Source of the DNA: Hydrolagus affinis
Lineage: Eukaryota
Direction of reading: 5' to 3'
DNA length: 64,000 bases
NCBI GenBank assembly: GCA_012026655.1
Contig: JAAILG010001434.1
Span: forward strand, 1 to 64,000
Positions 13,101 to 16,100 of the stretch are shown piece by piece. The translations under genes and the position numbers were made by a program. Under the pieces are notes generated by a model that had not been told where the DNA came from, searched no databases, and saw only the letters and a program-made list of their open reading frames with translations. Position 1 is the first letter of the stretch; each line of letters starts with the position of its first letter.

Positions 13101-16100
13101 GTAAAGTGAATTTACTGTATTTTTGTGGGCGATACACAGTAGCCAATTGCGCACAAAGGTGGCCCACAAACAGTCATGGATTGAGTGACCACATTTTTTG
13201 AAGGGATTATTGTTTGTGAAGATATATGGGTCTGTGAGATCCTTCACACATAATAACTTCTTTCTACTCCCAAAACGATCATTTCTCAATTGTCTTAAAA
13301 TAGATCATTTTCATTAAACCGAACACTGTGTAGACTAATGCTATTCACAAACACATTTAACCCTACCCTTAACCCAAGATGTTTCACTGCTCAGGCAACA
13401 CGTTCAATAGAAGTTTAAAGTGCAGAGTATTAACTTACACACATTTGCGTAGTTCAGAGTTTGGGCCCAGTTGGCAAGTGCCACCATTGTAACAATGTCC
13501 ATCACAAGACAGGCAACTGGATGCAATCCTTCCATTTGTGCAACCGCATCAACAAAGCGAGACCAATGTCATTCCAGATTATGCTACAAGAACCAGATTT
13601 GCAGGCACCTGTATGTATTCCTTGGAATGAACAATTGCACATGAAATTCATGTTGAGTTATTAGAAAATATGTTTCCAAGGGAGTGAATATTTCACTTTA
13701 GGGAAAAATATCGCTAAGAAAATTCAACCGATGATCAATTTCCTTAAGACATGTACCAGTTACAATGCTGGGATTATTAATGGACCCAAGACTATCTACT
13801 GACCAAGTTTGGAACATTTGCAAACCGTGCATGTTGTGTTCATTGTAGTTTCCAAATTCGTAGCCGCCAAATCGACAATCCCATATCGGCAAAGTCCATG
13901 GGACAGTCCCAGCCAACAAAACAGGGAGCTGGTGGCTTTCTTAGAAGCTTCTCTCAGACTTTGTCAATTTGGAATTCGGGATCCATCGACCGCAGAATCT
14001 GCAAACTAGAATTTGCAATCGATGCAACTAATCCAGTTTGTGAATGTCACGATTCAGAACTCAATCCTGCTGTTTCCTCTTGCACTTCTTTCCCAAAGTG
14101 AGTTTAGTGTTACTCTCCTTGCCTCCTGTCGTGCCAGTTTGCATTTTATACTGCCTGGCAGGAAGACTAATGTGAATCACGACATGTTATCCAGCGCGTA
14201 AACGTACTTAATGGGTTGAGAAATGTCTGCAGTTTACGCTTCCAGATTAAACACATTACAAAACCAGTCATGGCAAAACAGTAAAACTCGCTCAAAGTCT
14301 GATTTGTATAACTCTATAACCACCTAAACTGTATTTGGTTATGTTATATATCATATATAATATAACCAAATTATATAATATAATACATATAAAATAAAAA
14401 TCTTACATTAAATATTATATCACATATTTACTGCCGAGTTTCATTCAAAAAATATAGTCAATTCACTTTATAAGATATTCCATGAAATGCTTTGAGTTGT
14501 CTCAATGACGTGATAAGGCGCTATATCAAATACCAGGATTATTATTATTGTACAGTTGCCCAAGCTCAGTTCAAGTTTATTTTCTATACAAGTTTGACAT
14601 AACTCAAACCTTGAATGAAGCATATTAAATGTATGAGCCTAACTGCTATTAATAATAGTGATCCTTGCATTTGATATAAAGCTTTATCAAATCATTGAGA
14701 CATCTCAAAGCACCTCACAGAATATATTGTAAAGTGGATTGATTGTGCATTTTAGGATAATACTCTTCTCAGTTTGGTAACCCAGGTGATGCTGAATACT
14801 TCCTCGCAGCTTCAGCATGCAAACAATTCCCATGACATTTCAAGCTATGCATTATCCCCAGTGAAATTTACCGTGGGGATCAAAATAATGATGCAGTTTA
14901 TATTTATCACATGAAAATTTCCTGGGAGTTCTGGAGGTGAGCACTCTCTCCCATCATCCTCCCTCCTCCCTCTAAAATCACGTGGATCGTATTGTCAGTT
15001 AACAAGATACTGTAACAAGATTCTGGCTACTATACCTCATACTGGTAATTTTGCATATTTTGCTGAGTAAAGAAATAGTAACTAGCAGTAATTCCCTAAA
15101 CCTGGGAACAAGGAATGCAATGTGATGAAATGATCTTCATGGAAATGACTATTGAAACTGTTGCTGGGGCTTTGCGTTTAGTAGACGCAGAGAATATTTT
15201 ATGGGGTGTGTGTATGTCTTTACTCAGTGGGTAATCTACGACTAGAAATACTTTAGAAATACAAGTTGCCAGGGACAGCAACTGTTTAAAAAGGTGATGG
15301 GAGTAGGGGGAAGGATGAGATCAGATGGGCCAAAGAGCTTGTTCATCCAAAACAACCTTGTGATAGCAAACAGATGATTAAAGTGACCCAACATTTCTCT
15401 GAAGCCAGTATAATGATATAATGATGATTCACACCAATGAAGGTGATCTTTTAGGTTACAATGACGGCATGCAGATCACAAGCAGTGCCCCTCTGCAGAG
15501 CTTTCTGGCCTCATTTGTCTTCAGGGCAATTTTTTAATCACTTTCCTTGATCTGAATCATTTCAAAGGAGTGTGTACCTACATATTGTCATGGTACATCA
15601 CATCAATCAGCATTACAGGATCACAGGTAAATCCCAAAGTTGTGTTGGTTACTCGCAAAAAGCACGCAGGAGCCAATCTAATATCAATTAACTAATTGGG
15701 AGTGGTTTGGCTCTCAGTGATGCTGAGATAACCATGCCCACTTCCAATTCAGCTATTGTTCATCAATTAGACACAACGGAAATGTAGCAAGATAGCAATA
15801 GGCATTAATGAATGGATCAGGGTTCTCACACCGTAAAATTACTGTAGCACACACACAAACAAACAAAATACTTTGGACCCAGCACTAGCATTCCATCACC
15901 AATGTGATATTGTCATGCTCCTGAAAATTGGATCTCCCTATCTTATGAAAAGCATTCTGACTAACTCTGCAAGTGTGAGCTATCTTTTTATTACATTCCT
16001 ACTGTTGACTGCTCGCTAAGAACAAGGGGGAGAGAAAAATGTAATGTCCAGATTGGATAAGATATAATCATTAAATCTGGTGTGAAGTATTGCATTTTGC

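Follow-up and report, generated by a model that had tools for sequence, protein, structure and literature searches.

Results

An LRP1B-type gene in the window

The window, a stretch of 64,000 nucleotides from the chimaera Hydrolagus affinis, carries on its minus strand (4001..59217) the 3' part of an LRP1B-type gene, comprising its last 24 coding exons with 3,260 nt of coding sequence and a terminal TAG. No stop codon or frameshift was found ahead of this TAG; decay of the whole gene was rejected, as the remaining gene is intact. The part encoded in the window shares 82-85% identity with 'LRP1-like' proteins annotated in sharks and rays and 54-58% with bony-vertebrate LRP1B. A quick IQ-TREE analysis of 23 rows placed the window sequence as sister to five sharks and rays (SH-aLRT 100 and 98), and the unrooted tree separates the window, the sharks and rays and bony-vertebrate LRP1B from LRP1, lamprey and hagfish (SH-aLRT 100). 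A separate LRP1 gene is present in the same genome on contig C153, where a chain of 80 hits matches bichir LRP1. We infer that the window gene is the LRP1B orthologue. The shark and ray gene, although named 'LRP1-like' in the databases, also groups with LRP1B in this tree, in which a long stem (0.53) leads to bony-vertebrate LRP1B and suggests that this branch changed faster.

The window gene resembles LRP1B and LRP1, both of the LDL-receptor family, in its LDLa, beta-propeller and EGF repeats, its transmembrane segment and NPxY tail, and the phases of the exons encoding the last EGFs. Human LRP1B differs in having a 33-residue tail insert that is absent from the window gene and has no trace in the intron at 4142-5030 (minus strand); it is also absent from those models of shark, ray, coelacanth, ptarmigan and lamprey that were checked. 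The gene runs on upstream of the window, and contigs C696, C43870, C19298 and C1434 correspond to residues 1798-4570 of the bamboo-shark protein. A tandem acceptor, cagaag, with two AGs 3 nt apart, lies at 45501-45506 (minus strand).

The EGF exons preceding the transmembrane segment

Four consecutive exons on the minus strand are considered here: exon A (16609..16783), which has the U2-type donor gtaagtat; exon B (13439..13543; 105 nt); exon C (7347..7460; 114 nt), a one-EGF cassette with canonical splice sites; and exon D (6959..7035), which completes the final EGF ahead of the transmembrane exon. Exons B and C are built alike and have the same phase: each encodes the last two cysteines of one EGF (Cys5-6) and the first four of the following one (Cys1-4). 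The reading frame of exon B is open with all of its cysteines kept. Because the two exons straddle EGFs in the same phase, omission of exon B costs 35 residues, six cysteines among them, and preserves the six-cysteine spacing, as a preliminary description of this DNA had proposed in calling the skip frame-neutral. Dropping exon B and/or exon C gives 12 or 6 cysteines, with the one- and eight-residue spacings retained. An AlphaFold2 model of a natural skip form, computed from a four-sequence alignment, has a mean pLDDT of 43, too low to speak for or against the skip.

The acceptor of exon B

The acceptor of exon B (13544..13545, minus strand) reads GG in place of the normal AG, with the -2 position at 13545; the junction was placed by homology and by the AG of the paralogue. 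Both plus-strand bases, 13544 and 13545, are C, and the minus strand across the junction reads ...ctttgttgatgcGG at the 3' end of the intron, followed by TTGCACAAAT from the start of exon B at 13543. The preliminary description had reported a GG at this position, and the intron does end in cGG; its placement of the junction agrees with three lines of evidence. Proteins of sharks, rays and bony vertebrates have the motif C-N-C-T-N-G across the A/B junction; the LRP1 paralogue of this genome shows a canonical cag one base ahead of the equivalent Cys codon; and a junction search without a fixed dinucleotide scored GT-GG above the best GT-AG by 47-50 BLOSUM points. The same description had noted an in-frame TGA just 5' of exon B and an in-frame AAG at 13530-13529 whose use would cost a cysteine, and both are found in the sequence.

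All 23 donors in the window are GT, and 23 of its 24 acceptors read AG, exon B having the sole exception. Over the three contigs of the LRP1B-type gene, one of 46 tested junctions was flagged, that of exon B, with four further junctions outside the test. In the LRP1 paralogue three of 77 were flagged, with two further junctions outside the test; these three are artefacts, two of them reading as GT-AG and one spanning a missed exon. With these explained, the two genes together hold one homology-forced non-canonical junction in 123, and it sits on an exon that tolerates skipping. The change at 13545 is an A>G transition that does not lie inside a homopolymer.

The surroundings of the GG are those of a U2-type acceptor. 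A pyrimidine tract and a U2-type branch-point-like ATGAC about 29 nt upstream occupy 13546..13575 (minus strand), where no U12 branch motif is seen, and the donor of exon B (13433..13438, minus strand) is an intact consensus gtaagt. A small matrix trained on the LRP1B-type gene itself scores this context 14th from the bottom among the gene's 24 acceptors and above nearly all of 595 intronic AGs (99.5th percentile). A U12-type intron was rejected: compared with the U12 consensus motifs, the intron's donor mismatches at four of eight positions and the best branch match has four mismatches.

Extension of exon B to an upstream AG is blocked by the in-frame TGA and by frame, since the nearer AGs 5' of the exon (13585, 13610 and 13622) are all out of frame; this candidate was rejected. 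Within the exon there are two in-frame cryptic sites on the minus strand, the AAG 15 nt in (13529..13530; -7.9 bits) and a CAG 27 nt in (13517..13518; -4.8 bits) that the preliminary description had not listed and whose use also loses one cysteine; both have a poor context. The exon B region matched the assembly once in a DNA search, with no second copy found, and the idea that another copy carries the AG was rejected on that ground.

Annotated skipping of exon B in cartilaginous fishes

Joins from exon A to the exon that follows were rechecked in 205 proteins. The end of exon A was located in 15 of 16 cartilaginous-fish models, and the next exon is B in nine of them, C in four and D in two. 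Exon B is thus missing in frame from six of the 15 shark and ray models and in four of the seven species among the models listed, namely Scyliorhinus torazame, Chiloscyllium punctatum, Heterodontus and Narcine. The skip forms are database models, two of them named 'hypothetical protein', and 15 of the 43 cluster members were listed. The preliminary description had expected exon C to complete the EGF once B is skipped; this exact product is annotated in four of the shark and ray models. Shark and ray annotations jointly include all four combinations (B and C, B only, C only, neither), and so do the models of Narcine taken by themselves.

The set of other vertebrates holds 189 LRP1B and LRP1 proteins, of which 178 have exon A located; exon B comes next in 167, and a clean join from A to C or from A to D occurs in none of the 178. 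The other 11 comprise hits placed wrongly and models cut short, and in four of them the sequence passes directly to the tail or to something unrelated. When exon A was searched against 50%-identity representatives, the hits were generic EGF proteins of at most 51% identity, and the orthologue searches yielded no chimaera orthologue among their matches.

Exon C is an ancient cassette

Exon C had been put forward as an extra, redundant exon in the course of replacing B. Protein models that have exon C after B range, however, over lamprey, rays, sharks, gar, sturgeon, teleosts, frog, viper, ptarmigan, possum, mouse and other mammals. A recent duplication of exon C was rejected on this evidence, and the age of exon C leaves an exon replacement in progress unsupported. 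The canonical human LRP1B protein (4,599 residues) is without exon C, which may be why the exon looked extra.

Of 188 proteins surveyed for exons B and C, 128 could be placed and 60 could not; the placed proteins were called as B only (65), both B and C (57, one of these calls being wrong), C only (4) and neither (2). The B+C call for protein P0010 was rejected, as its insert is non-homologous. Exon C was not detected between exons B and D of the LRP1 paralogue. As a one-EGF cassette, exon C is conserved from lamprey to mouse in these protein models. A listing-level search of the literature on LRP1B splicing and evolution returned nothing on exons B or C.

Sequence constraint on exon B

Compared with sharks and rays, exon B carries the changes Tyr>His, Pro>Arg and Thr>Lys. 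The proline lies two residues ahead of the last cysteine; 119 of 119 B-bearing proteins have it, and the window has Arg in its place (codon at 13449-13447). His in place of the tyrosine occurs in none of the 119. Among columns at least 99% conserved, changes restricted to the window affect one of 10 in exon B and none of the 262 outside it (p=0.037), a contrast that weakens to p=0.18 and 0.19 with cut-offs of 95% and 90%. With a 13-species reference set the counts are 2/14 against 5/344 (p=0.027), whereas with four elasmobranchs alone as the reference there is no excess (3/30 against 77/851, p=0.52). These tests are post hoc and threshold-dependent, and their reference proteins are related rather than independent; the Pro>Arg change is a weak hint of relaxed selection on exon B. 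Three comparable changes (E>K, D>V and G>E) occur in the LDLa exon at 39602-39468 (minus strand), the splice sites of which are canonical, and the equivalent proline of an earlier EGF unit is Ser in the window. No decay is seen in the pyrimidine tract, donor or cysteines of exon B, which suggests that the change at the acceptor is either recent or leaky.

Discussion

We consider it probable, from the sequence and the protein models of relatives, that a real -2A>G change has switched exon B, an already skippable one-EGF cassette, mostly off. Under this reading a germline -2A>G at the acceptor would likely cause the spliceosome to skip exon B in most transcripts, and the product would likely be a receptor that still works and is shorter by one EGF repeat. 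Exon B appears to have been alternative in cartilaginous fishes already; selection against the loss of the AG would on that account have been weak, and the change could persist. The buffering is provided by the staggered layout of the EGF exons together with the skippability of exon B in these fishes. That the change is fixed in the lineage is a tentative proposition, somewhat short of an even chance, and that it is an allele of the sequenced animal is rather less probable than that.

A human parallel is SLC26A4 c.919-2A>G, in which the 3' splice site of a U2 intron likewise has GG for AG; the account in PMC8987850 describes mostly skipping in patient cells, with an apparent inclusion of 21.5-31% that is inflated by decay of the skipped form. 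By analogy with such human -2A>G alleles, some residual splicing may take place at the GG. Unlike in SLC26A4, the skip of exon B is in frame and matches the annotated forms of relatives, and its outcome here is deduced from sequence. A review (PMC12992808) counts the loss of exons whose splice sites have weakened among the recognized modes of splicing evolution, and cases of the TNNI3 exon 3 type described there resemble exon B in being included, skipped or inactivated depending on lineage; they differ in that fixation and loss from mRNA are putative for exon B, which also has no known phenotype. Exon B is present and included in the protein models of the outgroups, as a lineage-specific loss would require. 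The argument from the change falling on a skippable exon is weakened by a human survey, as reported in PMC2882926, in which the properties of splice-dinucleotide SNPs showed no difference between alternative and constitutive exons.

The principal alternative is an error in the consensus, in which case the animal would carry an AG and exon B would be a normal cassette exon. A single wrong base would account for everything, given that tract, donor, frame and cysteines are intact, and the assembly is fragmented into 245,464 contigs; the TOGA2 preprint (10.64898/2026.06.30.735536) attributes single inactivating changes to early loss, base errors or non-conserved exons, so that errors are among the recognized causes. 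We nevertheless regard this as improbable. The contig is 67 kb long, the window contains no N, and its 3,260 coding bases show no other lesion, although these gauge the substitution error rate only indirectly; no other such junction occurs among the 123, and no second copy with an AG was found. Nor does an error predict the Pro>Arg at a site conserved in 119 of 119 proteins or a preference for a skippable exon.

We rank behind this, at a similarly low probability, the proposal that the GG is a working U2-type acceptor through which exon B is still included substantially, perhaps under regulation. A U2-like donor, tract and branch point are all present around the GG, the context of the acceptor equals the gene's median, the consensus donor would favor exon definition, and every cysteine of exon B is kept; leakage from human -2A>G alleles (PMC8987850) is a further point in its favor. 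U2-type GT-GG introns do exist: those of BANP, where the ancestral dinucleotide was AG, and RBFOX2, which was tested by RT-PCR, are listed in PMC4176328 and resemble the exon B intron in having a GG derived from an ancestral AG in an otherwise U2-like context. The GG of BANP is, however, conserved in many vertebrates and supported by transcripts, while that of exon B comes from one assembly only, and most GT-GG entries have few reads among 30 rows, out of 176 occurrences, in the PMC4176328 supplement. The GT-GG cases described in PMC1557818, in ARAF and SLC12A7, are U12-type introns; they share the terminal dinucleotides with the exon B intron, which has neither the donor nor the branch motif of that class. 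The Pro>Arg change points to relaxed rather than retained constraint, and relatives already have a route for skipping the exon. More doubtful still is a narrower claim: that chimaeras have fixed the GG and continue to splice at it, as a non-canonical U2 acceptor that reduces how often exon B is included and thereby controls how long the membrane-proximal EGF stalk of LRP1B is.

A move of splicing to the in-frame AG 15 or 27 nt inside exon B is highly improbable: although both sites keep the frame, they score below the gene's weakest real acceptor (-4.4 bits with the small matrix), either would leave 17 cysteines, one of them unpaired, in an EGF short of one cysteine, and no such form occurs among the placed protein models (128 of 188).

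On the preferred reading, of a real -2A>G on a skippable cassette, exon B is likely an unremarkable example of how an exon that can be spared becomes mostly silenced. Because the mechanism is familiar and no phenotype is apparent, the significance of the case is modest, and it would be greater only if the GG were fixed and used; bony vertebrates would then always include exon B, sharks and rays would have it as an alternative exon, and a GT-GG intron would gate it in chimaeras. If the change is real, the locus offers an example of the loss of a skippable, frame-neutral exon in which every stage can be read across vertebrates, and the EGF stalk of LRP1B would tolerate changes of length in cartilaginous fishes. 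A separate form is seen in the Narcine protein P0163, which reads past exon B (window position 13439) into unrelated sequence; it may be secreted, ending ahead of the membrane segment.
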